In this document: piece by piece, positions 3,861 to 59,452 of the stretch
How the letters are laid out: each line of letters opens with the position of its first letter
How positions within the stretch are numbered: the first letter of the stretch is position 1
Assembly: GCA_964473825.1 (NCBI GenBank)
Contig: CAYYQL010000002.1
Location: 160,001 to 224,000 of the forward strand
DNA from: an uncultured archaeon
GTDB taxonomy: Archaea > Asgardarchaeota > Thorarchaeia > Thorarchaeales > Thorarchaeaceae
Direction of reading: 5' to 3'
DNA length: 64,000 nt
Translations under genes and position numbers: made by a program
The notes under the pieces: generated by a model
The model's input: only the letters and a program-made list of their open reading frames with translations
Databases searched by the model: none
Told to the model about the DNA's origin: nothing

Positions 3861-3965
3861 TGGCGGGCGCGCCAGGATTCGAACCTGGGACATCTTGCTG
3901 GCTTCGGGCCGTCTACGAGAATGACCCACCGAAGGCAAGCACCTTATCCGCTAGATTACGCGCCC
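3861..3965 (-). tRNA. tRNA-Arg(TCG) with 29-nt intron at 37/38 (3900-3928), CCA encoded
   Basis: GGGCGCG/CGCGCCC acceptor stem, CTTGC/GCAAG anticodon stem, TTCGAAT T-loop; BHB with CTTC/GAAG central helix. Confidence 0.95.
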
Positions 3966-17852: not shown

Positions 17853-17972
17853 TGGTGCGGGAGGAGGGATTCGAACCCTCGGACTCCTTCGAGAGCGGAT
17901 GACTCATTCCTTGACCCCGTAGTTCATCAGATCTTAAGTCCGCCGCCTTTGACCGGGCTTGGCAACTCCCGC
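17853..17972 (-). tRNA. tRNA-Leu(TAA) with 32-nt intron at 37/38 (17901-17932)
   Basis: GCGGGAG/CTCCCGC acceptor stem, long variable arm, BHB CTTA/TGAG, CCA encoded. Confidence 0.93.
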
Positions 17973-18051: not shown

Positions 18052-18157
18052 TGGTGGGGCGGGCCGGATTTGAACCAGCGACCGTCGAGAACAGCGAGAA
18101 TCTCGTCTGTTTTCTCGGTGTAAGCGAGACATCATAGCCGAGCTAGACTACCGCCCC
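18052..18157 (-). tRNA. tRNA-Val(TAC) with 28-nt intron at 44/45 in the variable region (18084-18111)
   Basis: Intact anticodon arm TCTCG-CTTACAC-CGAGA; removing a relaxed BHB (CGAG/CTCG helix) restores the AGGTC variable loop; CCA encoded. Confidence 0.88.
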
Positions 18158-21271: not shown

Positions 21272-21288
21272 GTATTACTGATATTACA
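21272..21288. promoter_or_regulatory. GTAATAC-family heptad pair (leftmost member of a dispersed array)
   Basis: GTATTAC-tg-ATATTAC with 9-bp period, in the mbf1/pan divergent intergenic region. Confidence 0.5.
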
Positions 21289-21366
21289 ATAGAGTAAAAT
21301 GGCGCCGTAACCCTCAAAGATAGCCTTAAAAAACTAGTAGTTGATGAGGAGTTGAGGTGCTACTGC

Positions 21367-22569
21367 ATGCCAGGTACTACCGATGCTAAGAAAGATGGAA
21401 GCCTAGATGACTCGTCGTATACACAAAGCTATACACGACACCTTGAGCGTCGACTTAGGGCATTGGAAACAGAGAAACAGATTCTACAGGCAGAGCGCAG
21501 TAGGCTTGAGAAAGAAACACAGACACTTAGAACCGAGCTCGAAAAGCTCAGACAGTCACCACTGATAACTGCAACAATAATTGACATGTTAGAAGACGGA
21601 AGAGCGATAGTGAAGAGCTCCACAGGACCGAATTTCGTTGTTCATGTCGCTTCATCAATCTCAAGAGATAAACTACGCTCCGGTATGAGAGTTGCTCTGA
21701 ATCAGAGATCGTTTTCTGTCACTCAGGAGCTTCCACCTTCGCGCGACCCGATGATTCGTGCCATGGAGATTGAGGAAGCGCCGGATGTATCATATGTGGA
21801 CATAGGTGGTCTCAGAGAGCAAATAGATGAAATCAAAGAAACAGTTGAGTTGCCGCTCTTGAAACCCCATGTTTTTGCTGAGGTGGGTGTTGAACCTCCA
21901 AAGGGTGTTCTTCTAACGGGACCTCCGGGAACCGGGAAGACGCTGTGCGCACGTGCAGTTGCCCATGAAACCAATGCCACATTTATCCGTGTTATCGGAT
22001 CTGAGTTAGTCCAGAAATTCATAGGCGAGGGAGCACGACTCGTGAGAGAAATCTTCATGTTGGCAAAGGAAAAGGCTCCCGCGATTGTCTTTGTTGACGA
22101 GCTGGACGCAGTAGGGTCTCATCGGCTAGATATTGCAACTTCAGGGGACAGGGAGGTTCAGCGAACACTCATGCAGCTTCTCAGCGAGCTGGATGGCTTT
22201 GAAGCTAGGGGGCAGGTGGCAGTTCTAGGCGCCACCAATAGACCAGATATTCTGGATCCGGCCCTGCTTAGACCAGGCCGTTTCGATAGGATAATCCAGT
22301 TCCCAAAGCCAGATAGTCATAGTCGACTTGAGATATTCAAGATTCATACACGTGGAATGAAACTAGATTCTGAATTGGACTTCGGTTTCTTGGTGTCTGC
22401 AACTGAGGGAACCACCGGGGCCGACATCAAGGCAATCTGCACGGAAGCAGGAATGTTCACAATCCGAGATAGTAGAGTCTGTGTTGGTCAGGAAGATTTT
22501 CGGAAAGCAATAAACAAAGTACAGACACGCGGTACAGGTGATCAAGCCCCTAGCGGAATCTATTGTTGA
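21367..22569 (+). CDS. pan: Proteasome-activating nucleotidase
   Basis: N-terminal coiled coil, GPPGTGKT, DELDA, DPALLRPGRFDR, C-terminal HbYX (IYC). Confidence 0.97.
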   Translation: MPGTTDAKKDGSLDDSSYTQSYTRHLERRLRALETEKQILQAERSRLEKETQTLRTELEKLRQSPLITATIIDMLEDGRAIVKSSTGPNFVVHVASSISRDKLRSGMRVALNQRSFSVTQELPPSRDPMIRAMEIEEAPDVSYVDIGGLREQIDEIKETVELPLLKPHVFAEVGVEPPKGVLLTGPPGTGKTLCARAVAHETNATFIRVIGSELVQKFIGEGARLVREIFMLAKEKAPAIVFVDELDAVGSHRLDIATSGDREVQRTLMQLLSELDGFEARGQVAVLGATNRPDILDPALLRPGRFDRIIQFPKPDSHSRLEIFKIHTRGMKLDSELDFGFLVSATEGTTGADIKAICTEAGMFTIRDSRVCVGQEDFRKAINKVQTRGTGDQAPSGIYC

Positions 22570-22597
22570 ATGGAATAGTCCAGTAATTGTGAAGTGA

Positions 22598-23425
22598 ATG
22601 AGATACCGTACTTATCTTGAGCGTGAATTGAAAGGGCAAATCCCCGAAGGTGCAAGAATACCTAGAGGCTATCACCTCATAGGACATGTCATCCTACTTG
22701 AGGTTGATCTATCACTACGGGGTTTTATACAGGAAATTGCTGAGTTGAGTCTTGCTTATGAATCACGAGCCAAGAGTATTCTCGTCCGGAATGGGCCAAC
22801 TTCTGGTGAGCATAGAATACCATCATATCGATTCATAGCGGGGGATCCAAATACAGAAACGGAACATATAGAGAATGGGGTTCGATTCAGGCTGGACCCG
22901 ACCAAGGTGACCTTCTGTGGTGGAAATCGAGCTGAACGAATACGTATGGGGTCTAGCGTTCACGAGAATGAACGGATTGTTGATATGTTCGCTTGTGTGG
23001 GACAGTTTGGAATTCATTTTGCCAAGACGGGAGGAGCAGAAGTTACGTGTATAGAGATTAATCCTGAAGCATTTCGGTATTTGGAGAAGAACATTGTGCT
23101 TAATGGAGTAGAGAACAGAGTTCGGGGCATCTTAGGAGATTGTAGAGAAAAGGTACCAAGAGAATGGGCTGATAGGATTGTCATGGGGTATCTAGACAAT
23201 ACTTGTGACTACTTGCCGTATGCTTTCAAAGCGTTGAAAGCTGGTGGCGGGGTTGTCCATATGCATATTTCGGCACCACTGCACGAGAGAGATTCTATTG
23301 GGAGGACCATAGGTTCGATAGGACTAGCAGCTGGCTTCTCAATATCTTATAATGTACGAGAAATCAAGAGCTACGCACCGGGTATCGTACATCTGGTGTA
23401 TGATGTTGACGCAATTCCATCCTAG
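22598..23425 (+). CDS. Trm5/Taw2 (Met-10+) family tRNA-modifying SAM transferase
   Basis: HIENGVRF, ERIRM, DMFACVGQF, EINPEA, ADRIVMGY, IKSYAPG. Confidence 0.88.
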   Translation: MRYRTYLERELKGQIPEGARIPRGYHLIGHVILLEVDLSLRGFIQEIAELSLAYESRAKSILVRNGPTSGEHRIPSYRFIAGDPNTETEHIENGVRFRLDPTKVTFCGGNRAERIRMGSSVHENERIVDMFACVGQFGIHFAKTGGAEVTCIEINPEAFRYLEKNIVLNGVENRVRGILGDCREKVPREWADRIVMGYLDNTCDYLPYAFKALKAGGGVVHMHISAPLHERDSIGRTIGSIGLAAGFSISYNVREIKSYAPGIVHLVYDVDAIPS

Positions 23426-23506
23426 ATGCAGTATAACGTAATCGTTTTATCATCACAACTGGGAGCTAGCTACTAGAAGTAAACCGGTTATGACGAGGAA
23501 TTCAGA

Positions 23507-23890
23507 ATGGGATTCAGAGGAGTGTCACCAAAGCAGCTTGCACGAATGATGAAGAAGATGGGTATTGAACAGAAGGAGGTGCCCGGTGCCAAAGAAGTGA
23601 TTATTCGATTTGAGGACAAGGAATGGGTGATAAACAGTCCACAGGTGACTATGGTCAAACAAGGGGGTTCCGAGACCTATCAGATTGGAGGAGATCGCTC
23701 CGAACGAGGTCTTACAACAGGAAGTGCTCCTGAGAAACGTGAGGAATCGAAAGAGCAGGAGATTGAAATCCCAATGGAAGATGCAGCTCTTGTGGCTAGT
23801 CAAGCTGGCGTCGATGTGGAACGAGCAAAAGAGGCTCTGAAAGAAACAAAGGGCGATCTTGCAGCTGCAATTCTTAGACTAAAATCGTAA
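23507..23890 (+). CDS. nac: Nascent polypeptide-associated complex protein
   Basis: MMKKMGI..EVII NAC domain and UBA-like EDAALVASQAGV..GDLAAAIL. Confidence 0.95.
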   Translation: MGFRGVSPKQLARMMKKMGIEQKEVPGAKEVIIRFEDKEWVINSPQVTMVKQGGSETYQIGGDRSERGLTTGSAPEKREESKEQEIEIPMEDAALVASQAGVDVERAKEALKETKGDLAAAILRLKS

Positions 23891-24163
23891 TATTGGTATT
23901 ACAATTCAAGCATATCTTGGATTTGGTGATAATTCCGTTGATGGTTACATCAGCTCTAAGATTTAGGACTCGCCGTGCTTTTCGGCAATCTTCAGTTCGG
24001 TCTTGAAACCAGAAACATTGCATGTGCTGTTGTTGTAACATAGGGGTGTCATTCATTCGATTTGTGAATGGATTGAAGCATTAATCATAGCTGCTATGTG
24101 GCTCCGGCAACCCTGAGATGTCCATCTTCGTCCAAGTATTCTATAGTTGCTGGTGTGCCCTGA

Positions 24164-24442
24164 CTATGCGAAAGTGTATGCAAGTGCAGATACTAGAATC
24201 ATGAAGATACAGACAAGAATCCATTGTCTTAGGTACCTCTTGGTAAGTTTTGGACGCTCATTGATTTGACCAGTCACTATTAGAGTCATTGCGGAGATGA
24301 AGAGAAAAGCAAAAGGCAATGACACCGAGCTCGTGCTGAGTGGGGTATCAGTTATCACTATTATTGCAGCAAGACCACCAAAGATGAGAAAGGAGATGAT
24401 CATCAGCGAGTTTAGTACGTGTCGGACCCTATCAGTATTCAT
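24164..24442 (-). CDS. Small three-TM membrane protein
   Basis: Three hydrophobic segments, ATG start. Confidence 0.7.
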   Translation of the reverse strand: MNTDRVRHVLNSLMIISFLIFGGLAAIIVITDTPLSTSSVSLPFAFLFISAMTLIVTGQINERPKLTKRYLRQWILVCIFMILVSALAYTFA

Positions 24443-24661
24443 TTTATCTGGCTCCGTGAATTCTGGCCAGGTGTTTCAGGAATCGGACACTAGAAAAAGA
24501 TTGTGTAATCTGCTCGTTTGCTTGCAGGTCCCTTGAGAAAGGATCGGGATTTGTAGAGTGTGTTTATGAGGGAATGTAGCCGCATTGCTTATAACACAAT
24601 GTTGTATTACAAGAACTACTCTTGATACAGTATGTTAGTTTCGACTTCAGAGGTCTAGAAC

Positions 24662-25636
24662 ATGACAATTGCAATTCACGAGTCGGCTCTGATCCGGCAC
24701 TTCAATACGCGCAAAGAAACTCTTCGTATGTGGGAAGAGAAGATCGGCTGTAGGTTCTCTCCCTTCCGTGGATTCAAGATGCCAGATAGCCGGTTGTACG
24801 TTGAACATCCCGATTTCTTAGATGCAATAGTTGACTTAGTCTTGACAAATGAGAGACATATATTTCTCCGTGGAGCTGTTGGTTCGGGCAAGAGCACACT
24901 GATGCTTTTAGCCTTGCGAGACCTACCAACACTTGCTGATAGAAGAGGTAACAAGTTCGTCACTGGATATGTGGGCATGACAGGACTTTATGAGAAACAG
25001 ATGGCTGCGGCAATCGCTGATTCTTTGCGTATCAAGTATCGACGTTCTTGGGAGTCTAGTCAGATAATCGAGGCAGTAGCAGAAGAGTGTCTCAGACGAT
25101 ACGTAGAGGAAAACAGTAGAACCGCACTGTTCATTGAAGATGTTGCTGATAACCAGGAAGCAGCATTTCACAAACTGCGATTCCTCGCAGACTTGCCTAC
25201 TGAGGAGATGGTTGAGGAACATCCTGAACCATTGGATGAGCCTATTGTCACTCTGATTATGTCAGGTACAGCCGAATACTGGAATGCTATGCTGAACTTT
25301 CTCCCCCAAATAGCAGATAGGACCGAACCATTGGATGTGCCACCTTTGGAAGATGCCAAGGCAAAGGAATTCATTGGTAGAAGAATTGCTTATGCGCGGG
25401 GGAACATAGATGAATTTGACAAGAACGATTTTGACATCAGCCCATTCAGTGAGGAGGCAATCGAGATAATCAATGATGCAGCTGGCGGTAACCCGCGGGA
25501 TATACGGATGCTTGCTAGAGGCTGTCAGCAAGTTGCCGCAGAGAATTTCAAACAACGAGGCGATCCAACAGTTGGCCGGGAGATAGCCAGTCTTGTTGCT
25601 GATGCTTATGATACCATACTCAGAGAGGTGCGCTAA
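24662..25636 (+). CDS. AAA+ ATPase (ExeA/TnsC/Cdc6-like architecture), function unknown
   Basis: Walker A GAVGSGKST, Walker B LFIEDV, sensor-I IMSGT, Arg finger QIADR, sensor-II GGNPRDI. Confidence 0.85.
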   Translation: MTIAIHESALIRHFNTRKETLRMWEEKIGCRFSPFRGFKMPDSRLYVEHPDFLDAIVDLVLTNERHIFLRGAVGSGKSTLMLLALRDLPTLADRRGNKFVTGYVGMTGLYEKQMAAAIADSLRIKYRRSWESSQIIEAVAEECLRRYVEENSRTALFIEDVADNQEAAFHKLRFLADLPTEEMVEEHPEPLDEPIVTLIMSGTAEYWNAMLNFLPQIADRTEPLDVPPLEDAKAKEFIGRRIAYARGNIDEFDKNDFDISPFSEEAIEIINDAAGGNPRDIRMLARGCQQVAAENFKQRGDPTVGREIASLVADAYDTILREVR

Positions 25637-25927
25637 GTGAGTCTACTAGGAAAATACAGAAAGGAATCTGAGAAGGAGGAAAGCGAAGCTGCTTCTGATA
25701 CCACTACAAGGGTTCGTAAGGAAGAAGAAACACGGGAATCGGTTCCGAACAAAGAACGGAAGAGTCCTATTGTCTCTTTTTCGATTGATGCAGATCTTAG
25801 AGAGTGCCTACAAGCTATCAGGAAGGCAAAAGCAATCAATCTGAGTATGTGGGTTGAGAAGAAGTTGAAAGCTGCAGTCTTCAGCGAGTTCCCACGAATA
25901 GCTGAGCAGTTCTTGGAATCTACCTGA
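25637..25927 (+). CDS. Putative ribbon-helix-helix DNA-binding protein with charged disordered N-tail
   Basis: IVSFSI strand, helix, INLSMWVEKKL second helix; starts immediately after the ATPase stop codon. Confidence 0.7.
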   Translation: MSLLGKYRKESEKEESEAASDTTTRVRKEEETRESVPNKERKSPIVSFSIDADLRECLQAIRKAKAINLSMWVEKKLKAAVFSEFPRIAEQFLEST

Positions 25928-26042
25928 TTATGTAGCACATTGACCTTCCCGATTGCCTTCTCGAGAGAGTTGTTAAGGCATCCGGCTAGAGTACTGCTCA
26001 ATTGGGAACCTCTGATTAGTAGATTCACTGTAACTCAGATAT

Positions 26043-26058
26043 GTAATAACCGTAATAC
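26043..26058. promoter_or_regulatory. GTAATAC heptad pair downstream of the ATPase-RHH operon
   Basis: GTAATAA-cc-GTAATAC, 9-bp period. Confidence 0.5.
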
Positions 26059-26060
26059 AG

Positions 26061-27434
26061 TTATTTCTTGGTGGCCTTGTGCATCTCGGCAAATTGGGTG
26101 ATACGATCCATACAGAGAATAGCGGTGGATGGATCATCATAACATGGGATTCTGTTCATCTCAAGCAAATCCTTACCCGGTTTTCCAACATCGCCAGCAA
26201 GCCAGACACCCACAACAGGTTTGTTGGTTCTAGATGTCCTTACACCCTCTAAGGTGCCAGCCGCGTGTTCGGTCTGTGTCATCCCTGCAAATGTAGGGAC
26301 ACCGCAGAGCACAAGAAGCATGTCGATGCTTGGATCGCGCAGCATAAGTTCGGTGGCCACTCTGTATTCTCTTCTCCCACCACTTGCCACTACATCTACA
26401 GGATTGTCAGTCGCTGCCATAGGTGGCAGGACTTCGTATAGTCTATCGCGAGTTTCTGAAGAAAGATGTGGAATCTCTAGCCTGTATCGTGAGGCTTCAT
26501 CTGTGGCCAAGACCCCTGCGCCTCCTGTATTACTAATAATACCAATATTACGACCCATCGGAAGTGGTTGGTAATCAAAGAGCTTCGCGATTTCGAATAG
26601 AGTATCTAGAGTGGGAGCTGTTACACAGCCAGCCTGACGGATTGCCGCCCCGAAGACCTTGGAAGAGCCAGCAAGAGATCCTGTGTGGGATTTCGTAGCC
26701 CGTGCGCCAGCTTTACTCGTGCCACCTTTCAGGACAACAACTGGTTTCCTTTCGGAAGCTCGCTTCAATGCTTGGTATAGCGCACGTCCTTTCTCAACTC
26801 CTTCGACATAGACAGTTATCACTGTGGTCTTTGAGTCATTGCGCAAGTAGTCAAGTAGTTCCACAAAACCGACATCAGCTGCGTTGCCTATGCTTGCAAA
26901 CTTGCTCATGCCAATTCTTTTTGCACGAGTTGTGTAGATTATCATTCCTCCGAGAGCACCACTCTGCGAAATCAGGGCTATATTACCTCGTTCAGGCATC
27001 ATCGTGAATGTGCCGTTGAAGAGACGGCTGTTTGAAACTCCGACACAATTAGGTCCAATTATTCTGACATCTGATTCCTTCGCGGCTTTGACTAGCTTGT
27101 TCTCAAGGATTGCCCCTTCTTCGCCTACTTCACTGAATCCACCAGATATTATCACTGCGTTCCTAGCTCCTGTTTCACGGATGTCCTTCATCAGTGATGG
27201 ACAGTATTTCGCAGCGATAGCTACAATGACCAGATCAACAGGTTCTGGAATCTCTTTGAGACTCTCGTAGGCCTTCACTCCCATGACCTGTTCTCGACTC
27301 CGCGTTACTGGATAACTGTCTAGTTCAGAAGCAAGGAGATTCATAAGCAGAGAATTTCCCAGTTTCCGGTAATCGGCAGAGGCCCCGACTAGAGCGACTC
27401 TTCTTGGATTGAAGAAGGGGTCAATGTCTGACAT
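26061..27434 (-). CDS. acdA: ADP-forming acyl-CoA synthetase alpha subunit (ACD)
   Basis: VALVGAS, IIGPNCVG, SQSGA, SHTGSLAG phospho-His, NTGGAGV, NPVDV; start reassigned to MSDID. Confidence 0.92.
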   Translation of the reverse strand: MSDIDPFFNPRRVALVGASADYRKLGNSLLMNLLASELDSYPVTRSREQVMGVKAYESLKEIPEPVDLVIVAIAAKYCPSLMKDIRETGARNAVIISGGFSEVGEEGAILENKLVKAAKESDVRIIGPNCVGVSNSRLFNGTFTMMPERGNIALISQSGALGGMIIYTTRAKRIGMSKFASIGNAADVGFVELLDYLRNDSKTTVITVYVEGVEKGRALYQALKRASERKPVVVLKGGTSKAGARATKSHTGSLAGSSKVFGAAIRQAGCVTAPTLDTLFEIAKLFDYQPLPMGRNIGIISNTGGAGVLATDEASRYRLEIPHLSSETRDRLYEVLPPMAATDNPVDVVASGGRREYRVATELMLRDPSIDMLLVLCGVPTFAGMTQTEHAAGTLEGVRTSRTNKPVVGVWLAGDVGKPGKDLLEMNRIPCYDDPSTAILCMDRITQFAEMHKATKK

Positions 27435-27843
27435 ATTGGGATGGCACAATTGTGTTTGATTTATGTCTGTCGTAGGTTGGCCACCTTTGAAGTTCAATTC
27501 TCAAATCCGACCGATAAGATGTGAAGATGCAAGATGTTGTAATACTATTATTATGACTAATAGAGTCGTAGGGAGGGAGAGATCGGTACTGTCTTTTTTC
27601 CTCCACGTATACACCCATGATGCGATTTCGTTCTTCCGTGAAATAACGGAGGATATTCGCCAATGTCATGACAATCCTTTTCAGCATTTAACGGTCAGTC
27701 GTATACAAAATTGTATCCGCTGAAACGAACAGAAATAGAGTAAGTTGAAGGAGCCCTCATAACTCTTTATTTATAGTTTGAAGAGTTATGGGCTCTGTTA
27801 CGAAATGCCTCTATTAGAGGTAACATGATTCATAGGTGGAAGA

Positions 27844-28395
27844 TTGAAAATGACCGGTTCTGACCAGAAACGAAGTAGTACAAAAGCTGTTGCATCAAAT
27901 GTGAAGAAGACTTTGAAGGAGCCTATACTACAAGGGCTACTTGACCGGAGTGGCTTGACCGAAGTGCAGCTAGAAACCCTATTGATTGATCTGGTCATAG
28001 AAGATCTGATTGATGGCAGTGTGCCCTATGAGAAGAAGGCATCTCTAAGGTCTCGAGAAGGCAGTAGATCACTGGGAGTGAGTCGGGGGGCATTCAATCG
28101 TACTTTGCACCAAGCGCGGCGGAATGTAACCAAGGCAGTGCATACTATGCTTCTTCTTGCCTATCTTGATTTATTCGATCTGAATATCTTTCGTCCTTTC
28201 GAAGAAGTTGCAGGGGAAATCCGGAAATATCGAAACATCAGAGATGTGTTAGCTGGCAGAGCAGAGCTCTCAGCCGAGGATTTAGAGAGTTATCGTACAG
28301 CAGAAAGAGCAATCATAAGCGCTGTTGATGACCTTACATCTCCGCTCATTTTGAAATCTGAGAATTCGAAAAAACAGGCAGGCTTCGGACGTTAA
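27844..28395 (+). CDS. Conserved-looking hypothetical protein with HTH-like segment
   Basis: LTEVQLETL...GVSRGAFNRTLHQARRNV recognition-helix-like motif. Confidence 0.7.
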   Translation: MKMTGSDQKRSSTKAVASNVKKTLKEPILQGLLDRSGLTEVQLETLLIDLVIEDLIDGSVPYEKKASLRSREGSRSLGVSRGAFNRTLHQARRNVTKAVHTMLLLAYLDLFDLNIFRPFEEVAGEIRKYRNIRDVLAGRAELSAEDLESYRTAERAIISAVDDLTSPLILKSENSKKQAGFGR

Positions 28396-28817
28396 GGTAT
28401 GTAATATTTGTAATACTGTCATCTTGGGTTTGAATAGAGAGCATCAGTCAAGAACTAAAAAAGAAAAATGGCACGAGTGTGCCGCGCTGAAGCAATCAGG
28501 CATGTTCCAACCGTTGCTACGGAATCATCTTGGAGGTTTGTGTTTGAGGAGATAGAGATGCCGTAACTGACGATTGAAGATCCGGGAAGGACCTAGCCGT
28601 CATTATCTCTATCAACACGACACACTCACTATTATTGTGGGATACGGGTATACATAGTTCTAATCCTAGAACGAGGATTTTCCGCTTGGATTTGTGCGAC
28701 TTTCTGTCTTTGGCATTCCAGTTTCTCCGCATAATACTTGTAATACAGTATCGTGATAGAGAAGAATCCTTATTCGCAAGATGTTAGGACTGTTTGAGCG
28801 GCACAATCGCGTCTTAG

Positions 28818-30050
28818 GTGATACAAGTGAGTGGAAAACGACGCCTAGATGAATTGCGCAAAAGGGCAGAACAACACTCTAGGAATTCGGAAAAAGCACG
28901 AGTTCAAGAATCCATCACAAATGCAATCGGTGATAGAAGAGGAAGGGATCTTGTAGACCAGATTTCGAAGATTGAGAAGCATTCAGGATGGGAGCATGTG
29001 GTGGAGGTATTGGCTTCAGCGCGGCTTGCAGAGTATTCTACTCCTATAGCACTCGGATTCCAGAAGAGGAAGCTGGAACCGTTGAAGTTCAGAGAGGTGT
29101 TGTTCGGACTCTTTTCATGTTCAGGTTTTGAACCGATAGATGTTCCCACCGAAGAGATTCTTAATCAGCTTTATGAAGTTGATAGTTTCGTTAAGGCGAA
29201 CACTCTATTCCGGGCTCTTATTGAAAATCATGCTTCGAATCAGATTAAATCAGGAGACCTGTTATTCTTCTCAGGGGACTCGTGGAATTCTGACATAACT
29301 GAGAGAGTCAACTCGCTACAAGAGAGTCAAATGGAGAATTTTGTTCTACCCAGTGTGAATGAGAATGTTCAACTACAGAAACTATGGAGGACAGAGTTAG
29401 GACGCCGCCTGCTTGCTAATCTAGGTGTGAAAGGGACTATCCTCAATCTCGATAGTGATGTAATACAGATATTAACTGTATCATTTCCTGGTTTGACAAC
29501 GACAACAGAGAAACAAGTGAAGGCCAACTCACAGATACCTAACGTTCCTTCCCTTCCGGTTTATGACCGTCTGCTTACGGCTATTATTGAGCATGAGATA
29601 GAAGATCTCCGGAACCTAGGTAGTCAATGGGCATATCCAGTTCTTGACTACTACGTGAGTGAGTCACTGAGAGATTATTTGGAAAGTGATAGTCCAGAGG
29701 AGTATCGGCGATATCTGAGTGGTCTCAATGCACATATTGCGGTCCGTGCTGTTGAATCGATATCTACGTTCCAGAAACTCATAGAAAGAATTGACGTCCC
29801 TAGAGTTTCAGAGCCAGCAGCACTTGCCCTGGGAAACTTCTTCACTGAACCAGCCATCGCTGTTCTCTTGGAAAAAGTCTGTTCTACGTTAGATGAAACA
29901 AGCGAAGCTGCTCTGAGAGCATTGCAACGGATTCATGACTTTACACCCGAAGCTGAGCCAATGATAAGACTGGCAGCTGAGACCAACTGCAGGTCAGCTG
30001 CAAGACTGAATGCAATACTGGAAACACGTATTTGGAGCTCATCGCGTTGA
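28818..30050 (+). CDS. Hypothetical alpha-helical protein with C-terminal HEAT-like repeats
   Basis: 410-aa ORF; AALALGNF and AALRALQRI HEAT-like segments. Confidence 0.65.
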   Translation: MIQVSGKRRLDELRKRAEQHSRNSEKARVQESITNAIGDRRGRDLVDQISKIEKHSGWEHVVEVLASARLAEYSTPIALGFQKRKLEPLKFREVLFGLFSCSGFEPIDVPTEEILNQLYEVDSFVKANTLFRALIENHASNQIKSGDLLFFSGDSWNSDITERVNSLQESQMENFVLPSVNENVQLQKLWRTELGRRLLANLGVKGTILNLDSDVIQILTVSFPGLTTTTEKQVKANSQIPNVPSLPVYDRLLTAIIEHEIEDLRNLGSQWAYPVLDYYVSESLRDYLESDSPEEYRRYLSGLNAHIAVRAVESISTFQKLIERIDVPRVSEPAALALGNFFTEPAIAVLLEKVCSTLDETSEAALRALQRIHDFTPEAEPMIRLAAETNCRSAARLNAILETRIWSSSR

Positions 30051-30096
30051 TTGCGGCCAATCGTATTACAAGTATTCCTTATAATACGTGACGTTC

Positions 30097-30501
30097 TTAT
30101 CGTGGAAGTGTCCATTCTGAATGCTCTTCAACTGGAACAAACCCCAGGATTAAGTTGCCTCGAACTTCATCGAACTTGAACACTCCGAAAATATGGCGGT
30201 CGCTACTGTTCCCCCAATCGATTCTTTGTCGAGCGATCAGGTTCTCAAAGAGAGACCTGCATTGTCGCCTTACCGTCAAGAAAAGATTCCGATACCGTCT
30301 GCGTTGAGATGGTCGGATATCCCACCGCTCTAGAATAAAACGATTGGCAAGGCTATTGCTCGAGATCAGGATTGATCTCTTTTTCATGTTTGACAACTGT
30401 ACACTCTCTTCCAGTGCCTTTCTCAAAATATCAGGAGCGGTTGCCAGAATAGACGGCGTTGCGATTGGTTCTTTGAATGCTATGCTGTTCTTCTTGGACA
30501 A
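30097..30501 (-). CDS. Hypothetical basic protein (134 aa)
   Basis: Arg-rich ORF filling the gap; no family recognised. Confidence 0.6.
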   Translation of the reverse strand: MSKKNSIAFKEPIATPSILATAPDILRKALEESVQLSNMKKRSILISSNSLANRFILERWDIRPSQRRRYRNLFLTVRRQCRSLFENLIARQRIDWGNSSDRHIFGVFKFDEVRGNLILGFVPVEEHSEWTLPR

Positions 30502-30657
30502 ATGCCTCGACCATCCTCACACTAATACTGTGTGTCTTGGCTTAAGAAGACCACAATCAAGATGAACGCATCAGCCGCCTAACAACTGCACACTCTCTTC
30601 CAGTTCCTTCTTCGGTGAACTAATATCATTACACGGACCTAGCTTTCAGGGTGTAGT

Positions 30658-33003
30658 GTGTTGAAACAAAGAGCCAGAATTCACGTTACAGGTATAGTAC
30701 AGGGAGTTGGATTCAGGCCCTTCATCTTTCGTCAGGCAAAAGAACGGTCTCTACAAGGTTATGTCCTCAATCTCGGAGATGCTGGCGTTAGAATAGTGAC
30801 AGAGGGCGATGAAGAGAAAATCCAAGATTTCATTCAAGAGATACAGAGTAATCCACCATCGATATCACGCATAGAAACTCTGGATACTGAATGGATGGAA
30901 CCAACCGGAGAATTCAACGACTTCGTTATCAAGAAATCATCGACCGGAAGAAGCAAGGATGCTGCACCTGAGATTCCACCAGACATAGCAATATGTCGGG
31001 ACTGTGTTGAAGACCTATTTGATCCAAATTCTCGGTGGCACCTCTACCCCTTTACATCGTGTGCTGCCTGTGGACCTCGGTTTTCCACTATCACCGACCT
31101 TCCTTACGATAGACCCAATACAACCATGGATGATTTTCCACTATGTGATACTTGTAATACGGGTTATACAAATCCACTCGATAGAAGGTACCATGCTCAA
31201 ACCACAGCGTGTGAGAGGTGTGGTCCTTCCTACAGACTTGTTGATAAGCAAGGAAATCTAGTCGAAGATGAAGATCCTGTTCCTGTTGCTGTATCTATGC
31301 TTGACCAAGGAAGGATTGTAGCGCTACAAGGAATATCTGGTACGCATCTTGCCACAATAGTGTCAGATCCTAATCCAATACGCAAGTTGCGTCGAAGGAA
31401 GCGAAAGTCGCATCGCCCCTTTGCTGTGATGTTTCGGGATATCGAAACCGTCAAGACACAGTTTGACCTCAGTGATATGGAACAGGACTTGCTCTTATCA
31501 TGGAGAAGGCCTATTGTTCTCTTGACTATTGGAGACGATGTATCACGTGTAATACCTCAGTCTTCAATTGACCAGATTGCACCTGGCCTGGATAGCATAG
31601 GAGTGATGCTGCCCTATGCGCCGATGCATCATATGCTATTCGAGTATACAGATGAACCCGCATTGATTATGACGAGTGCAAATCCGTCCGGTGTCCCCAT
31701 GTACATCGAACCAGACAGGATTATTTCGGACCTGAGAGATATTACTGATTTCTCTCTTGTTCATGATAGACGAATTCATCAACGGGCAGACGATTCTGTC
31801 ATTAAACCATTGACCAAGTCGAAGGCGGTATTCATTCGTCGTTCACGTGGTTACGTTCCAGAACCGATAGGGGTTCGTGGTCCTTGGGGCGACTTGACCG
31901 GTATTGCTGTTGGACCTGAAGAGAAAGTCACGGGATCTGTGCTCAAGGCTAGCAACGCCTACCTTACACAGTACATTGGTGATGTCGACAAAGTAGAAAC
32001 CATCAACTTCCTGTCTGATGCACTACATCATATCAGGCATCTGATTGATGTGCCCAGACCTGATTTTGTTGCGTGTGACCTGAACCCGCAGTTTCTCACC
32101 ACCGAATTAGGCGAAGAGATGAGTAAAGACCTTGATGCTCCATTGGTCAGAGTTCAGCATCATCATGCACATCTAGCGGGACTGATTGCAGAGCATAATC
32201 TGCCCCCTGATACTCGTATTGTGTGTATTACGGTTGATGGGTACGGATATGCACCAACAGGAGAAGCTTGGGGTGGTGATATCCTTCTAGGAAACTATGA
32301 TGAATACCAACGAGTCGGAGGGCTTAGACATAGTGTCCTTCCCGGAGGAGATTTGTCAGCACGATATGCAGCAAGGTCTCTGTTGGGGATCTTAGATGAT
32401 GAGATTGATCTGTCGCAGATACTAGAATTGTCAAGGGGTTATGATATTGCACTTGGAACCCCAACCGATCCCAATACTATTGCTATGGTGTATGAGTCAT
32501 TAAGAAAAGGTATCAATACTGTCGATACGACGAGTGCCGGCAGATTTCTGGATGCGGTTTCATTAGCTATAGGCGTGTGTGGAGAGAATACATACGATGG
32601 AGAATGTCCAATGCGTCTTGAAGCTATAGCACACGATAGGGGACTCCAACTCGAAGCTCACTTCCTCGAGGCTCACGATGGTCTGAATCTGGATACAAGA
32701 GACTTGTTATTACAAGTAATACAACTGAGGAAATCAGAAGTGCCACAAGAGGGGCTTGCATACACAGCCCTACATACCTTAGGTGCAAGCCTAGCTGATG
32801 CAAGTTGTGATATCGCGGAACAACATGGGCTTCAACATATCGGTCTCTCAGGAGGAGTCGCACTGAATAGGATTGTAACACGATCTGTGATTAATCAGGT
32901 TAACAAGAGAGGATTAACGCCGCTTATCCACAAGCAAGTACCACCTGGCGACGGAGGAATCTCTCTCGGACAGCTTGCTATTGGGGCAAAGAAGCTTTCT
33001 TGA
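30658..33003 (+). CDS. hypF: Hydrogenase maturation carbamoyltransferase HypF
   Basis: GIVQGVGFRPF acylphosphatase, CxxC Zn fingers, YrdC-like domain, QHHHAH, PPGDGGISLGQ. Confidence 0.97.
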   Translation: MLKQRARIHVTGIVQGVGFRPFIFRQAKERSLQGYVLNLGDAGVRIVTEGDEEKIQDFIQEIQSNPPSISRIETLDTEWMEPTGEFNDFVIKKSSTGRSKDAAPEIPPDIAICRDCVEDLFDPNSRWHLYPFTSCAACGPRFSTITDLPYDRPNTTMDDFPLCDTCNTGYTNPLDRRYHAQTTACERCGPSYRLVDKQGNLVEDEDPVPVAVSMLDQGRIVALQGISGTHLATIVSDPNPIRKLRRRKRKSHRPFAVMFRDIETVKTQFDLSDMEQDLLLSWRRPIVLLTIGDDVSRVIPQSSIDQIAPGLDSIGVMLPYAPMHHMLFEYTDEPALIMTSANPSGVPMYIEPDRIISDLRDITDFSLVHDRRIHQRADDSVIKPLTKSKAVFIRRSRGYVPEPIGVRGPWGDLTGIAVGPEEKVTGSVLKASNAYLTQYIGDVDKVETINFLSDALHHIRHLIDVPRPDFVACDLNPQFLTTELGEEMSKDLDAPLVRVQHHHAHLAGLIAEHNLPPDTRIVCITVDGYGYAPTGEAWGGDILLGNYDEYQRVGGLRHSVLPGGDLSARYAARSLLGILDDEIDLSQILELSRGYDIALGTPTDPNTIAMVYESLRKGINTVDTTSAGRFLDAVSLAIGVCGENTYDGECPMRLEAIAHDRGLQLEAHFLEAHDGLNLDTRDLLLQVIQLRKSEVPQEGLAYTALHTLGASLADASCDIAEQHGLQHIGLSGGVALNRIVTRSVINQVNKRGLTPLIHKQVPPGDGGISLGQLAIGAKKLS

Positions 33004-33038
33004 GTGTGTATTATCTATAATACACATCTAACTTTGGG

Positions 33039-33653
33039 TCAGATGTATTTCCTAACTTCTTCCAGGCCTCTCTTGAAAGCAGCCTTGTTTATGGATTCAA
33101 ACCTACCGGGAAAGGATGACGCGATGGTCTCTAAGGCAGTCTTCTCGCTAATCGGTGTAATTGACGAAGCTATAACTGCCCCCAACATGACCATGTTCAT
33201 CGACCGGGGACTGCCGGCATCCTTTGCGAACTTCATAGCATCAAATTTGATTATCTTTTCAGTGAAATTCCGCAAGGAGGATTCTATGATTTCTTCAGAA
33301 GGATATTCTGCTTTTCCCATAGAAACTGCAACAGGATAAACAACATGCGAGTTCATGAGTACTTGACCGCTTGGTTTGATCACGGAAATCTCTCTTAGAG
33401 TTTCAGCCGGTTCAAATCCGACAAGGATGTCTGCGGTTCCGGTATCGACAATCGGCCCTCTAACGTCTGAACCAATTCGTACAGTACAGACTACGTGACC
33501 CCCTCTCTGTGCCATCCCATGAATCTCGCCCACTCGGACGTTGAGTCCATCTGCCAGTGCAGCCTTGGCCATTATCTCAGCTAGCGTGAGAACGCCCTGA
33601 CCTCCAACTCCTGAAATCACTATGTTCAAAATATCAGCTGAGTCTTCACTCAC
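33039..33653 (-). CDS. iorB: Indolepyruvate:ferredoxin oxidoreductase beta subunit
   Basis: GVGGQGV, EIHGMAQRGGHV; GTG start at 33653. Confidence 0.93.
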   Translation of the reverse strand: MSEDSADILNIVISGVGGQGVLTLAEIMAKAALADGLNVRVGEIHGMAQRGGHVVCTVRIGSDVRGPIVDTGTADILVGFEPAETLREISVIKPSGQVLMNSHVVYPVAVSMGKAEYPSEEIIESSLRNFTEKIIKFDAMKFAKDAGSPRSMNMVMLGAVIASSITPISEKTALETIASSFPGRFESINKAAFKRGLEEVRKYI

Positions 33654-33655
33654 AT

Positions 33656-35548
33656 CTATTCCTCCTTCTGCTTGATTGCACCCTGCGGACATACTTCTAC
33701 ACAGGTGCCACAGAGATTGCATAATGTTTCGTCTATCACAGCCTTGCCTGTTTCAGGATCTTCATACATGGCTGGGCATGACAACCGATTGAGACAGCGT
33801 TTGCATGCGTTACAGATCTCGGGATCGACATAGTATTGAGACGGGTACTCTTCCGTCCTTCGTCTTTCTGCTGCCGTGAGCAAGGCACATGGTTCTCTCG
33901 ATACGAGAACTGCAGGTGCCTGGTTCTCACGTACCCAGTTCACCATCTCTCGAACCTCCTTGACCATATCTGCAACAGAATCGAATGGCCGAATAGTCTT
34001 GACATACTCTACTCCAAGACCTTGGCAGACCTTGGCTATATCTAGGGGTTCAACTTGTTTTTGCATGCCGGTTAGACCCGTACCCGGATGTGGCTGATGA
34101 CCAGTCATTGCTGTAGTGCGATTGTCTAATACAACAAGAGAAACAGGATGCTGATTGTAGACTGCATTTGCAACACCGGCGAGGCCAGATGCGAAGAACG
34201 TACTATCCCCAATTGTTGCAACCACATCTTGATCGGTTACCTGTGCAAGCCCACAGGCAGTTGTTATAGAGGATCCCATATCAAAGAGTATGTCTGCGGT
34301 TTCAAGTGGAGGGGCGATACTCAGCGTATAACATCCAATATCTGAGGGGTAGATTGCCTTTCCGCGAGTTGCCGTCTTTATGGCATAATAGCTTGCCCGA
34401 TGAGGACATCCAGCACAGAGGAGAGGAGGTCGTGGTGGAATGTCAGGGAGCTCTGCTGCCTTCTCTTCAAGTGCTTCCCAGAGAGTTGGTGTATTACGAT
34501 TAATAGCCTCTGATATTCCCTTCATGACGATCCGAGGACTGTACTCATATGTTCTAGAGAAGTATCCTTGTTCCTTTCCCAGAATGTCAACATCGACTTC
34601 TCTCAGTTGAGCAATCCTGCGAGTGTGTGTTTCCAAGAAGGGTTCAAGCTCCTCTACAATGACTACTTTCGAATGACGCCTCAAGAAATCGGAAATCTTG
34701 TCTTCTGGGACAGGATGGGTCATACCAAGTTTCAGTACTTCAGCATTAAGATTCATGATTGAGAGAGATTCCACGACGTAGTTGTATGCTACGCCGCTTG
34801 TGATTATGCCCAGTTCGCCCTCACCCTCAGTGAAGTTGAGATTGCTGGATTCTGAAATGCTCTTGGCTTTCTCAATCTGTTGGAGCAACCAAGGATGACG
34901 TGTTCTTGCAACTGATGGAACCGGGACAAATCGGAACGGTTCCTTTTCGAATTCTACATGCTTGGGACGATCTTGAATGGGCCCGAAAGTAACAGGGGAT
35001 CGCGAGTGATTTACTCGCGTAGTTGTTCGAAGAACCACTGGAAGCTCCAGTTTCTCGGAGATTTCATAGATTTCCAATAGCATACTCTTTGCTTCTGCAG
35101 GGTCAGCGGGCTCTACCATAGGCATATTTGCCATCAGTGAGTAGTATCTGGAATCATTCTCGTTCTGAGAACTCCACATGCTGGGGTCATCGGCTACCAC
35201 AATGATCATGCCTCCCCGCACACCAACATATGCTAGGGTCATGAAAGGGTCTGCGGCCACATTCAGTCCTGGCCCCTTGCATACCATCATTGATCGCACT
35301 CCTGCAACAGCAGCCGCTCCTGCTACCTCCATTGCAACCTTTTCATTGCTACTGAACTCAAAATAGAAATTGGGAATGTGAGGAGCCATTGAAAACAAGT
35401 TGTTTCCTATCTCACTACTCGGCGTTCCTGGATAGAGAGCCACAAGGCGAACACCTGCCTCCAGGGTACCCCGGGCAATCGCCTCATTAGCAAGTAAGAG
35501 GTGAGTGGCCCCAACACAATCCGCCAGAAGTTCGTTCCTTTTGGTCAT
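33656..35548 (-). CDS. iorA: Indolepyruvate:ferredoxin oxidoreductase alpha subunit
   Basis: YPGTPSSEI, NEKVAME, RPPLLCAGCPHR, GDSTF, TAMTGHQPHP, C-terminal ferredoxin. Confidence 0.96.
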   Translation of the reverse strand: MTKRNELLADCVGATHLLLANEAIARGTLEAGVRLVALYPGTPSSEIGNNLFSMAPHIPNFYFEFSSNEKVAMEVAGAAAVAGVRSMMVCKGPGLNVAADPFMTLAYVGVRGGMIIVVADDPSMWSSQNENDSRYYSLMANMPMVEPADPAEAKSMLLEIYEISEKLELPVVLRTTTRVNHSRSPVTFGPIQDRPKHVEFEKEPFRFVPVPSVARTRHPWLLQQIEKAKSISESSNLNFTEGEGELGIITSGVAYNYVVESLSIMNLNAEVLKLGMTHPVPEDKISDFLRRHSKVVIVEELEPFLETHTRRIAQLREVDVDILGKEQGYFSRTYEYSPRIVMKGISEAINRNTPTLWEALEEKAAELPDIPPRPPLLCAGCPHRASYYAIKTATRGKAIYPSDIGCYTLSIAPPLETADILFDMGSSITTACGLAQVTDQDVVATIGDSTFFASGLAGVANAVYNQHPVSLVVLDNRTTAMTGHQPHPGTGLTGMQKQVEPLDIAKVCQGLGVEYVKTIRPFDSVADMVKEVREMVNWVRENQAPAVLVSREPCALLTAAERRRTEEYPSQYYVDPEICNACKRCLNRLSCPAMYEDPETGKAVIDETLCNLCGTCVEVCPQGAIKQKEE

Positions 35549-35643
35549 TTCAGTGCCTCACTAGGACGATCATCCACAAAGACGAACGAGCAACAATAGG
35601 AAATGTGTATCAGTCTTTTGGTTCGTGATATACTAACGTCTTC

Positions 35644-35661
35644 TTAGAACATGTGTTCCAA
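35644..35661. promoter_or_regulatory. GAAC-N4-GTTC palindrome, copy 1 of 3 (others 35878-35895, 36205-36222)
   Basis: TTAGAACATGTGTTCCAA; TTGGAACACATGTTCCAA; TAAGAACACATGTTCCAG. Confidence 0.75.
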
Positions 35662-35670
35662 GCGATTCTA

Positions 35671-35840
35671 GACCCCTTTATTTCCAGTAGAGCTTCGTGT
35701 CGATCGGTTCCCGTTCGCTTAATTAACCAAAACTATAAATAGCTATTAGGTCAGCTGTCCTTATCTCCATTTTAATACAATACACTACTACCCGCTGTTG
35801 TAGTACCCCATTTTTTAAACTCTAGTGGAAACGAAGGGGT
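35671..35840. other. Probable replication origin: inverted ORB pair flanking an AT-rich spacer
   Basis: Minus-strand CTCTACTGGAAATAAAGGGGTC (35671-35692) and plus-strand CTCTAGTGGAAACGAAGGGGT (35820-35840) match the archaeal ORB pattern (TCCA-TGGAAA plus G-string); about 127-bp AT-rich spacer. Confidence 0.75.
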
Positions 35841-35897
35841 GAACCGGGAGATTCCGGATCTACTCATTCATTATAGTTTGGAACACATGTTCCAATT

Positions 35898-36188
35898 CTA
35901 CACTTTATCGAATTGGACAACTTCAAAAACAACAGTGGAGAGAATATCGTTGTATTTCTTGAAAAGCTGGTCAAACATACTCTTACAAGTGTCAGGTACG
36001 AGAATAGCAGAGTTGGCAACTGCTTCGGAAGCTGAGCATTGATCTAGCAATCCAGGTTTCCGCTTCTCCTTCTTACCACTCTTTGTCTTCCAAGAATAGA
36101 CAAAACCGTACAATTCCTTAGTAAAGGCTACTCTTCTTGCATTTGTCTGACGTGCCTTCTCACAGTCATAGACATACAGATAGACCAT
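35898..36188 (-). CDS. Small Cas2/VapD-like ferredoxin-fold protein (stand-alone)
   Basis: MVYLYVYD N-terminal strand with Asp, RR..F..ELYG, NSAILVP. Confidence 0.6.
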   Translation of the reverse strand: MVYLYVYDCEKARQTNARRVAFTKELYGFVYSWKTKSGKKEKRKPGLLDQCSASEAVANSAILVPDTCKSMFDQLFKKYNDILSTVVFEVVQFDKV

Positions 36189-36331
36189 GCTACTATCCCA
36201 AGACTAAGAACACATGTTCCAGTATTCAAACAGTGTATTACCGGCATAATCTCTCAGACGGAAAGATTAATGCAGGGGAAAAAACGCAAGTGGTTCTCGT
36301 GGCTACCTAAACATTATGAGGTGACTTTCGA

Positions 36332-38998: not shown

Positions 38999-39631
38999 CT
39001 ACTCAAATTGAATCTCAATAGCTGCAAGGATCTCTTCAGCCCGTTGAGTTTCACTCTGCACTTCGTCCAGCTCAGTTCTTAGTCTATAGGTATAACCGGA
39101 CCTATTGCCGAATCTCTCAAGATGACCCTTACCCCTGTCCCACATTCTTGCTAAGTATGTAGAGGCTGTACTTTTTGGCAAATCTTCGCCAAATGTCCCC
39201 TCATATATCTCTGTAACATCTAATGAGGAGAACTTGCCATGCTTGAATGAGGCATAAATTATCATCTGCATCTTCTCGAAATTACTCATAGATTCGGGGA
39301 TTACCTTCTCAAACGAAAGCGTCTGTTTTTCCTGAGAAACAGGTGATAGCGTCTGGCCAGTTGTTGTTTCAAGAAAAACACGGAACTTTGCAAGCATCTC
39401 ATCCACGGTGCCTTTCACCTGAAAGCTCGACTCTTCTCGTGTGGCTTCATTAGAGATTACGATTTTGAAATCAAATGGCGACTCGGTCATTGCAAGGATC
39501 TTCTTGAATCTCATCAATGCCTCATCCGGTGTAACATACTTGCATTGGAAGATCTCGTCCAGGCCTGGAGCTGAGCTATAAGTGAATTCATAGATGAAAC
39601 CAGTTCGTTCACTTCCCAAAGTATATTCCAC
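38999..39631 (-). CDS. Protein with C-terminal winged-HTH DNA-binding domain
   Basis: FSSLDVTEIYE...KSTASTYLARM...LERFGNRSGYTYRL wHTH pattern. Confidence 0.75.
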   Translation of the reverse strand: MEYTLGSERTGFIYEFTYSSAPGLDEIFQCKYVTPDEALMRFKKILAMTESPFDFKIVISNEATREESSFQVKGTVDEMLAKFRVFLETTTGQTLSPVSQEKQTLSFEKVIPESMSNFEKMQMIIYASFKHGKFSSLDVTEIYEGTFGEDLPKSTASTYLARMWDRGKGHLERFGNRSGYTYRLRTELDEVQSETQRAEEILAAIEIQFE

Positions 39632-39641
39632 TCCAGTCTTC

Positions 39642-40056
39642 TATTCACAAGGACATAGCATTGGAAGCTAGATAAGTGTGAGTATGTGAATCGCGCATAT
39701 CGGGATAATGGCAATATATCCTCCAAGTATCCATATCAAGCTTGTCAGCCCCTTGCATTAATGAATTAGATACTAAGAACCCTCTGACACAACATAACGA
39801 GATTATTAGGCCTTTAAATCCAAATTAAGAGGTTTCTTCCATGCTCTCCGATATTCACAGCAATTATAATGCTGTGAATAACCATAGGCGTTATAAGAAT
39901 TCTCCTACCGAATCTCCACTGGAAACGAAGGGGTGTCGCTATTCACAATAGCTAGCGCACTTATGGGCTCCGTTTGCCTCTTAGATGACAATATGACTAG
40001 TCTTTGTCATAGAACATTCACAAATATGGCGCCATTCACAAATTCGTATTGTGAAC
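39642..40056. repeat. Cluster of ATTCACA boxes upstream of the wHTH gene
   Basis: ATTCACA/TGTGAAT at 39643, 39685, 39853, 39873, 39941, 40016, 40034, plus variants; includes the inverted repeat TATTCACAGCA-N7-TGCTGTGAATA. Confidence 0.8.
39914..39934 (+). promoter_or_regulatory. Solitary ORB element
   Basis: CTCCACTGGAAACGAAGGGGT, 19/21 identical to the ORB at 35820. Confidence 0.75.
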
Positions 40057-59354: not shown

Positions 59355-59452
59355 GCGGCCGTGGTCTAGTTTGGTTAGGACGGAAGCTTCCCAAGCTTCC
59401 AACCCGTGACGGTCGTATGACCGCGGGACTTCAAATCCCGGCGGCCGCACCA
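59355..59452 (+). tRNA. tRNA-Gly(CCC) with 21-nt intron at 53/54 (59409-59429)
   Basis: GCGGCCG/CGGCCGC acceptor stem, GAAGC-TTCCCAA-GCTTC arm; BHB CCCG-TGA-CGGTC / GACCG-CGGG-ACT; CCA encoded. Confidence 0.88.

Follow-up and report, generated by a model that had tools for sequence, protein, structure and literature searches.

A GTAWTAC box array, an AAA+ ATPase and a predicted ribbon-helix-helix protein beside a predicted replication origin of a Thorarchaeon resemble a centromere-like or origin-organizing system

The stretch of DNA analyzed here (the window, 64,000 nucleotides) corresponds to positions 160001-224000 of contig CAYYQL010000002.1 (C2) in a Thorarchaeal metagenome-assembled genome (GenBank assembly GCA_964473825.1, hereafter G000) that comprises 3.27 Mb in 103 contigs and is 95.7% complete. 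Near-identical proteins carry Thorarchaeota source names, in agreement with this Asgard assignment. Within it, a two-gene operon coding for an AAA+ ATPase (P0001) and a small protein predicted to adopt the ribbon-helix-helix (RHH) fold (P0002) lies in a dispersed field of short palindromic boxes, GTAWTAC, which ends at a predicted replication origin. According to the window annotation, the genes between 19.7 and 37.6 kb are ordinary core genes: from 19.7 kb onward, the left side of the operon carries TFE, aMBF1, the proteasome ATPase PAN, a Trm5/Tyw2 methyltransferase and NAC, while the right side carries ADP-forming acetyl-CoA synthetase (ACS), four uncharacterized genes, HypF and a POR-gamma/IOR-alpha pair, followed up to 37.6 kb by a 96-aa gene and an alanine-dehydrogenase-like gene. 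A preliminary description of this DNA had named restriction of the operon to mobile elements away from origins as a refuting condition; a mobile-element reading is rejected, since the operon is a single-copy core pair located about 10 kb from the origin and its neighbors are syntenic housekeeping genes. The features of the locus are as follows (box features have no strand):

21272-21287: heptad pair, 80 bp 5' of the PAN gene
23887-23902: heptad pair at the NAC stop codon
24604-24619: exact heptad plus degenerate partner, 58 bp 5' of the start of the ATPase gene, right after a TATA-like box
24662-25636, + strand: AAA+ ATPase P0001, 324 aa, with Walker A, Walker B and sensor 2 and an ExeA-like N-terminal region
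25637-25927, + strand: predicted RHH protein P0002, 96 aa, GTG start in the codon right after the ATPase stop
26043-26067: heptad cluster between the RHH gene and the ACS 3' end
26527-26551: triple heptad in ACS, codons for NIGIISNT
27539-27554: heptad cluster, 42 bp 5' of the ACS start
27844-28395, + strand: helix-turn-helix (HTH) protein, 183 aa, recognition helix GVSRGAFNRTL, sigma-r4/DUF134-like HTH by weak matches only
28401-28416: heptad pair at the HTH gene 3' end
28731-28746: heptad pair 5' of a 410-aa HEAT-like gene
29460-29475: heptad cluster within the 410-aa gene
30063-30087: triple heptad between convergent genes
31145-31169: triple heptad within HypF, codons CDT CNT GYT
31540-31555: heptad pair within HypF
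32216-32231: heptad pair within HypF
32707-32722: heptad pair within HypF
33008-33023: heptad pair between the convergent HypF and POR-gamma genes
34491-34506: heptad cluster within IOR-alpha
35671-35692 (- strand) and 35820-35841 (+ strand): oriC-type origin, an inverted pair of origin recognition boxes (ORBs) with core TGGAAAC-N-GGGG
36235-36241: last exact heptad, single, just past the origin

A box array bounded by a predicted origin

The window contains 21 exact heptads (GTAATAC or GTATTAC) where 3.9 would be expected, a count reached in none of 100 shuffles; the whole genome holds 149 of them in 3.27 Mb, of which 16 fall within 20 kb of the window's contig. The distribution is more uneven for pairs, defined as two heptads separated by two nucleotides with at most two mismatches summed over both heptads: only 24 exist genome-wide, 22 of them on the window's contig and 20 between 21272 and 34506, a 13.2-kb interval in which about 0.1 would be expected by chance. 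Eleven control palindromes of equal base composition form between 9 and 227 pairs genome-wide and place 0 or 1 each in the array region, while the four GTA-type pairs lying outside the array are fewer than the count of any control. The genome-wide census proposed in the preliminary description thus returned enrichment near the operon and the origin rather than a uniform scatter, and the box field is a unique array of about 14 kb, private to the origin-flanking region of the chromosome.

The heptad coordinates reported earlier all hold, with some changes to what had been said about them. Describing the boxes as being in direct or inverted orientation is meaningless, since GTA-W-TAC is itself a palindrome. 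Their grouping into pairs and triplets with a 9-bp period stands for most sites, the heptads at 24604 and 36235 being single exact copies whose partner is degenerate or absent. About half of the clusters lie within coding sequences, namely ACS, the 410-aa gene, HypF and IOR-alpha. Of the remainder, five are positioned 40-100 bp 5' of start codons, including the promoter of the operon itself, and five at gene 3' ends or between convergent genes.

The geometry of the field was derived from 17 loci, the present one and 16 others fetched from related Thorarchaeota. In these, the central base of the box is A in 223 cases and T in 186, clusters contain two (n=142) or three (n=43) heptads, and within clusters the 9-bp register is strict with a 2-nt spacer rich in A/T. 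The clusters number 10-23 per locus and extend over 11-16.5 kb. Neighboring clusters are separated by a median of 768 bp, and gaps shorter than 300 bp account for only 9 of 233, when random placement would make them roughly a quarter of the total.

On the right, the array terminates at the ORB pair, two inverted 22-mers flanking an AT-rich spacer of 127 bp, whose core is of the canonical archaeal ORB type. The element occurs in only three copies in the assembly, all of them here, the third at 39914. Judged by sequence criteria, the predicted origin is real: inverted ORBs together with an AT-rich unwinding-type region correspond to the definition of an archaeal ORB origin, ORBs having been described as initiator sites (PMC3089459). 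The extension of the array to the origin, as first described, is confirmed and conserved in relatives, most family loci keeping the inverted ORB pair at the right-hand end; the dense array of two relatives, viewed over 60 kb, goes no further than the ORBs, and the array end coincides with the ORB pair in G000, G010 and G021. Genes for Orc1/Cdc6 are found in the window at 59710-60801 and on contig C30.

Several other elements surround the origin. The third ORB copy (39911-39935) shares 88% identity with the copy at 35817-35841; it is found 4 kb away from the origin pair, 5' of an uncharacterized 210-aa gene (38999-39631) without Pfam match. Directly adjoining the ORB origin, a 96-aa Cas2-like protein beginning with YLYVYD is encoded at 35898-36188 on the minus strand; homologues are also present beside ORBs in Odin, Frey and f19 loci (L030, L031, L032, L046), with no CRISPR context seen. 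The palindrome GAACACATGTTCCA is found three times around this gene, at 35647, 35881 and 36208.

The ATPase and its small partner protein

The two genes of the operon are as tightly coupled as previously stated, the ATPase ending at 25636 and the GTG of the 96-aa gene starting at 25637. P0001 displays a Walker A motif (GAVGSGKST), an acidic FIED Walker B, an SGT sensor 1, a conserved arginine in IADRTEP and a GGNPR sensor 2. In Pfam, only AAA_22 and AAA_16 are matched, both below threshold (AAA_22 23.6 bits for a cut-off of 27); in NCBIfam, the ExeA-like model TIGR03015 is matched at E 1.8e-7 but with 30.9 bits for a cut-off of 324, and some members of the family are labeled ExeA by JGI and NCBI. 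The structural model (predicted local distance difference test, pLDDT, 65.8) has as its best fold matches MuB, archaeal and eukaryotic ORC/Cdc6, TnsC and NB-ARC, tied at Z 10-12. Two candidate identities were rejected. An Orc1/Cdc6 initiator does not fit, as the match to model TIGR02928 is below cut-off (E 0.05, 12.5 bits for a cut-off of 181) and the protein ends with the AAA+ lid, devoid of a C-terminal winged-helix domain; nor does a ParA-family ATPase, for which KGGxGK would be expected in place of GAVGSGKST, the AAA+ lid with GGNPR and the ORC/MuB/TnsC-like fold pointing the same way. The earlier assignment to the AAA+ class rather than to ParA is therefore borne out by motifs, profile libraries and fold alike.

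A profile search of 1.84 billion representatives retrieves only 25 proteins at E<=1e-3, and the named members come from Thor-, Gerd/Heimdall-, Frey- and Odinarchaeia, all of them Asgard archaea; in the phylum sample, the family is present in six families. Going by its modeled structure and its distribution, P0001 represents a narrow, Asgard-only AAA+ family with an ORC/Cdc6-, MuB- and TnsC-like fold that is distinct from ParA.

P0002 opens with an invariant basic N-terminal peptide (MSLLGKYRKE), continues with a charged linker that varies and ends in a conserved strand-helix-helix (residues 44-92). Compared with PDB sequences it has a sole, spurious match (PLC-beta), and no sequence similarity to SegB was detected. 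Its AlphaFold2 model contains helices at 54-63 and 71-84 preceded by an unstructured stretch at 44-50, and the fold search with the monomer returns nothing above Z 3.1, a weak outcome that is expected because an obligate dimer was modeled alone. The Gerd/Heimdall orthologue, by comparison, passes the Pfam family RHH_1 (PF01402) with 23.2 bits for a cut-off of 20.5 and is homologous to P0002 (hhalign 97.9%, E 4e-13, P0002 residues 44-84 aligned); the language-model neighbors of residues 36-96 agree, falling in Arc/HicB, CopG and ParG clusters. P0002 is thus classified, by homology, as an RHH protein, in keeping with the RHH-like domain and charged tail first attributed to it.

Conservation and variation of boxes, operon and origin

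A homologue of P0001 exists in 23 of 24 genomes of the family (f1), with 78-98% identity across genera, and is more conserved than PAN or IOR of the same loci. The box field is found in all 16 related loci, with 12-35 pairs per 20 kb around the ATPase gene, these pairs making up 38-86% of each family genome's total; the one family genome without an ATPase match (91% complete) has only four pairs. A pair is located at most 150 bp 5' of the ATPase in 12 of 17 family loci, and the site at 24604-24619, placed over the promoter of the operon, is probably autoregulatory.

In codon alignments of the intragenic sites, pairs occupy orthologous codons in ACS (17 of 17 loci), in HypF (14 of 15 for the site at 31145, 13 of 15 for that at 32216, and 7 of 15 for another) and in IOR-alpha (12 of 17). 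Along the ACS run xGT AAT ATT GGT ATT ATT AGT AAT AC, synonymous positions are fixed over about 15 genera, whereas the flanking four-fold sites are freely variable. In HypF and IOR, the protein itself is bent to the motif (C-N-T and R-N-T), genomes without the site having different residues there, and the sister-family outgroup encodes similar peptides in which the motif is absent. On this codon-level evidence the intragenic sites are selected as DNA, and they would illustrate clearly how DNA-binding sites can constrain codon choice and even the protein itself.

Outside the family, the association persists and the motif may differ; several natural specificity variants exist (GTAWTAC, TTAWTAA, GATATC and GTTAAC). 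In the sister family f2, the ATPase is 67% identical, the architecture is the same and the box is TTAWTAA; this box came from a mismatch-tolerant palindrome scan, exact k-mers having given no motif, and 12 of its 45 pairs genome-wide, including the only two perfect ones, are within the 14 kb that surround the operon and an ORB-like pair. In Gerd/Heimdall loci, whose ATPase is 43% identical to P0001, the GTAWTAC-N2-GTAWTAC arrangement recurs with 18-21 pairs per 21 kb (32% GC) versus 0.69 in shuffles; boxes are located 35 bp 5' of the ATPase, between the ATPase and RHH genes and after the RHH gene, where a non-coding gap of 950 bp immediately 3' contains about 20 heptads. More distant ATPase-RHH pairs beside an ORB and a Cas2-like gene occur in f19 and Frey-type genomes: the closed f19 genome uses the palindrome GATATC with a period of 12-13 bp, 10 of the 61 copies of TGATATCA being within 15 kb, and clusters of a private palindrome, GTTAAC, surround the operon in Frey-type lineages. 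In Odin loci, which like those of Frey and f19 have ORBs near the operon, exact k-mer motif discovery found no motif. The RHH strand differs among these lineage groups, Frey and f19 included, reading PIVSFSI in f1 and VIFTCSI in f2. The motif is tied to the operon, and sites, operon and origin are linked across lineages; synteny and co-occurrence, which the preliminary description had proposed to check, were found across the family.

The HTH gene and the 410-aa gene (27800-30100) are on the plus strand in the present genus, while their homologues in other genera are on the minus strand, which amounts to a local inversion; heptad clusters flank both genes despite it.

Known systems and competing explanations

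The closest described system is SegAB of Sulfolobales. SegB, an RHH protein, reads a 3-1-3 palindromic core, AGA-S-TCT, at sites that cluster near segAB and are mostly intragenic (10.1101/2025.02.07.637068). The present locus likewise is a chromosomal archaeal two-gene operon in which an NTPase precedes an RHH protein whose N-terminal part is disordered, the core GTA-W-TAC, its predicted target, is also a 3-1-3 palindrome, sites are near the operon and frequently within genes, and the Metallosphaera segAB locus similarly adjoins oriC1. The differences are that SegA is a ParA-type Walker ATPase, its counterpart here being an ExeA/ORC-like AAA+ protein, and that SegB sites are also scattered genome-wide, whereas at least 83% of pairs are here confined to one origin-bounded field of 14 kb. 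HpaAB of Haloferax is a further ParA-RHH pair.

Like the plasmid type Ib partition cassettes ParF-ParG/parH of TP228 and delta-omega of pSM19035, the Thorarchaeal operon encodes an NTPase and then a small RHH protein with a flexible basic N-terminal tail, is associated with a centromere-like set of iterated short repeats (heptads in the case of omega) and has a site over its promoter that would allow autoregulation; the compact Gerd layout of ATPase, RHH gene and array resembles sopABC/parABS. It differs from these cassettes in its motor class, in being chromosomal, single-copy and core, and in having, in Thorarchaeota, repeats dispersed over 11-16 kb and into genes. Measured against type Ib and SegAB systems together, the RHH protein with flexible tail and the repeats beside the operon and at its promoter are found here, and the ParA-type Walker A is not; the locus is no member of type I/SegAB because the defining ParA ATPase is replaced by an ExeA/ORC-like AAA+ protein. 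The many dispersed palindromic sites confined to the origin region recall parS, which in ParB systems nucleates a large nucleoprotein complex, although the predicted reader is here an RHH protein and not an HTH CTPase clamp.

MuB, TnsC/TniB and Orc1/Cdc6 are AAA+ proteins that oligomerize on duplex DNA, their placement or switching depending on a partner that recognizes a specific sequence. They are the nearest folds to P0001 (Z 10-12), from which they are set apart by the absence here of any transposase context and of a winged-helix domain, and by the narrow Asgard-only distribution of the family. A canonical SegAB or ParABS system elsewhere in the genome was considered and rejected: a search for ParB_N domains in this 95.7%-complete assembly found none, and the ParA/MinD-like genes (contig C25, 16610-17368; contig C5, 13437-14243) have roadblock/longin-like neighbors, not RHH or ParB partners. 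A literature search found no description of this ATPase-RHH-box system, and reviews only mention ParA/ParB-like genes (PMC7617429).

The locus looks like an undescribed centromere-like or origin-organizing system. With a probability of about 0.5, the heptad clusters, the RHH protein and the AAA+ ATPase would form a single origin-linked chromosome-handling module that follows the logic of a partition cassette, that is, a centromere-like nucleoprotein domain that the RHH protein nucleates at the origin and on which the ATPase acts. RHH dimers would read each palindromic GTAWTAC box and occupy two or three adjoining ones cooperatively in the 9-bp register, much as MetJ, omega, ParG and SegB bind their repeats; through the conserved basic N-terminal peptide on its flexible linker, they would recruit or stimulate the ATPase which, in its ATP state, would assemble on the flanking duplex in the manner of its structural relatives ORC/Cdc6, MuB and TnsC. 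Some 15-20 nucleation points, about 0.8 kb apart, could then turn the 14 kb beside oriC into one nucleoprotein domain marking, compacting or positioning the origin region in centromere fashion, the site over the operon's own promoter providing autoregulation. We infer from sequence the binding of the RHH protein to the boxes, its interaction with the ATPase, oligomerization on DNA and the cellular role.

Several observations weigh against such a module. No member of this ATPase class is known to segregate DNA, and we know of no genetically manipulable Thorarchaeota strain. The genome also encodes ParA/MinD-like ATPases and SMC, so that a conventional segregation route could still operate. Most of the sampled Asgard families gave no match for the operon (0 of 25 and 0 of 14, for example), which is therefore no general Asgard solution. 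As for the RHH protein, neither P0002 itself nor 24 homologues match an RHH family in Pfam, the monomer model is poor (pLDDT 59.6), and the covariation of its strand with the motif is loose, Gerd proteins reading PVISATV and Thor proteins PIVSFSI for a common motif. Finally, the major-codon frequency, 0.92 within sites versus 0.53 elsewhere, comes from a test that is partly circular because motif presence defined the sites.

A bolder version of the module must be called tentative and is on balance doubtful: it would represent a new class of Asgard machine for DNA segregation or origin positioning, in which an ORC/MuB-like AAA+ protein, and not a ParA, actin or tubulin homologue, polymerizes from an RHH-marked, multi-kilobase centromere embedded in housekeeping genes beside oriC.

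Given that the nearest folds of the ATPase are ORC/Cdc6, MuB and TnsC, a replication-linked role is a serious rival, albeit an unlikely one. The ATPase, an ORC-like AAA+ protein lacking the winged helix, would be tethered beside oriC through the RHH protein and regulate initiation without moving DNA, whether by Hda/RIDA-like or datA-like titration or inactivation of Orc1/Cdc6 or MCM, by sequestration after firing or by licensing. Such control of the origin would suit an array that abuts the genome's only ORB cluster and an operon that is accompanied by an ORB in Thor, f2, Odin, Frey and f19, and in Gerd by an Orc1/Cdc6 gene; the nearest folds include archaeal Orc1/Cdc6 and eukaryotic ORC/Cdc6, and the GNPR sensor 2 resembles the Cdc6 type. 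Yet the sequence similarity to Orc1/Cdc6 is not significant, MuB, TnsC and NB-ARC are its equals by fold score, an evenly spaced 14-kb field running through genes exceeds the needs of a local origin regulator, and in Gerd the array adjoins the operon, about 10 kb away from the cdc6 gene. Sequence by itself does not tell segregation, origin control and local repression apart.

Local repression would make the RHH protein an autoregulated repressor of nearby promoters, co-transcribed with a functionally separate ATPase. RHH proteins are mostly repressors, and the five clusters upstream of start codons, that of the operon among them, are where a repressor would be expected to act; a plain regulon is nevertheless improbable because of the intragenic and 3'-end sites, the regular spacing and the unrelated housekeeping functions of the genes concerned (PAN, NAC, ACS, HypF, IOR), to which may be added the retention of intragenic sites at synonymous positions over 15 genera and the mere 4 of 24 pairs outside the array.

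Equally hard to favor is the idea that the ATPase-RHH pair is a passenger and that another protein reads the heptads, such as a 134-aa basic protein or the 183-aa HTH protein, whose gene keeps HypF and the operon as neighbors in the loci of Thor, f2, Frey, f19 and Gerd: the latter protein has one and the same recognition helix in f1 and f2 despite their different motifs, the Gerd boxes flank the ATPase and RHH genes themselves, and tandem short palindromes with a period of 8-11 bp are the typical target of RHH proteins. The HTH protein is a possible accessory or alternative reader of the boxes.

The partition-like module provides parts that can be put to the test, namely a defined DNA motif, a small RHH protein and an ATPase. 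If the ATPase were its motor or organizer, partition-like systems would gain a new class of NTPase, and an ORC-related AAA+ protein tied to centromere-like DNA would bear on the evolution of origin and centromere functions.

Two minor features of the window complete the picture. The gap between NAC and the ATPase gene measures 766 bp, and its sole open reading frame, a doubtful one of 92 aa at 24164-24442 on the minus strand, has no family match. Rfam tRNA genes of 95-117 nt, absent from the ARAGORN output and probably intron-containing, are located at 3864-3965, 17856-17972, 18055-18157 and 59355-59449.

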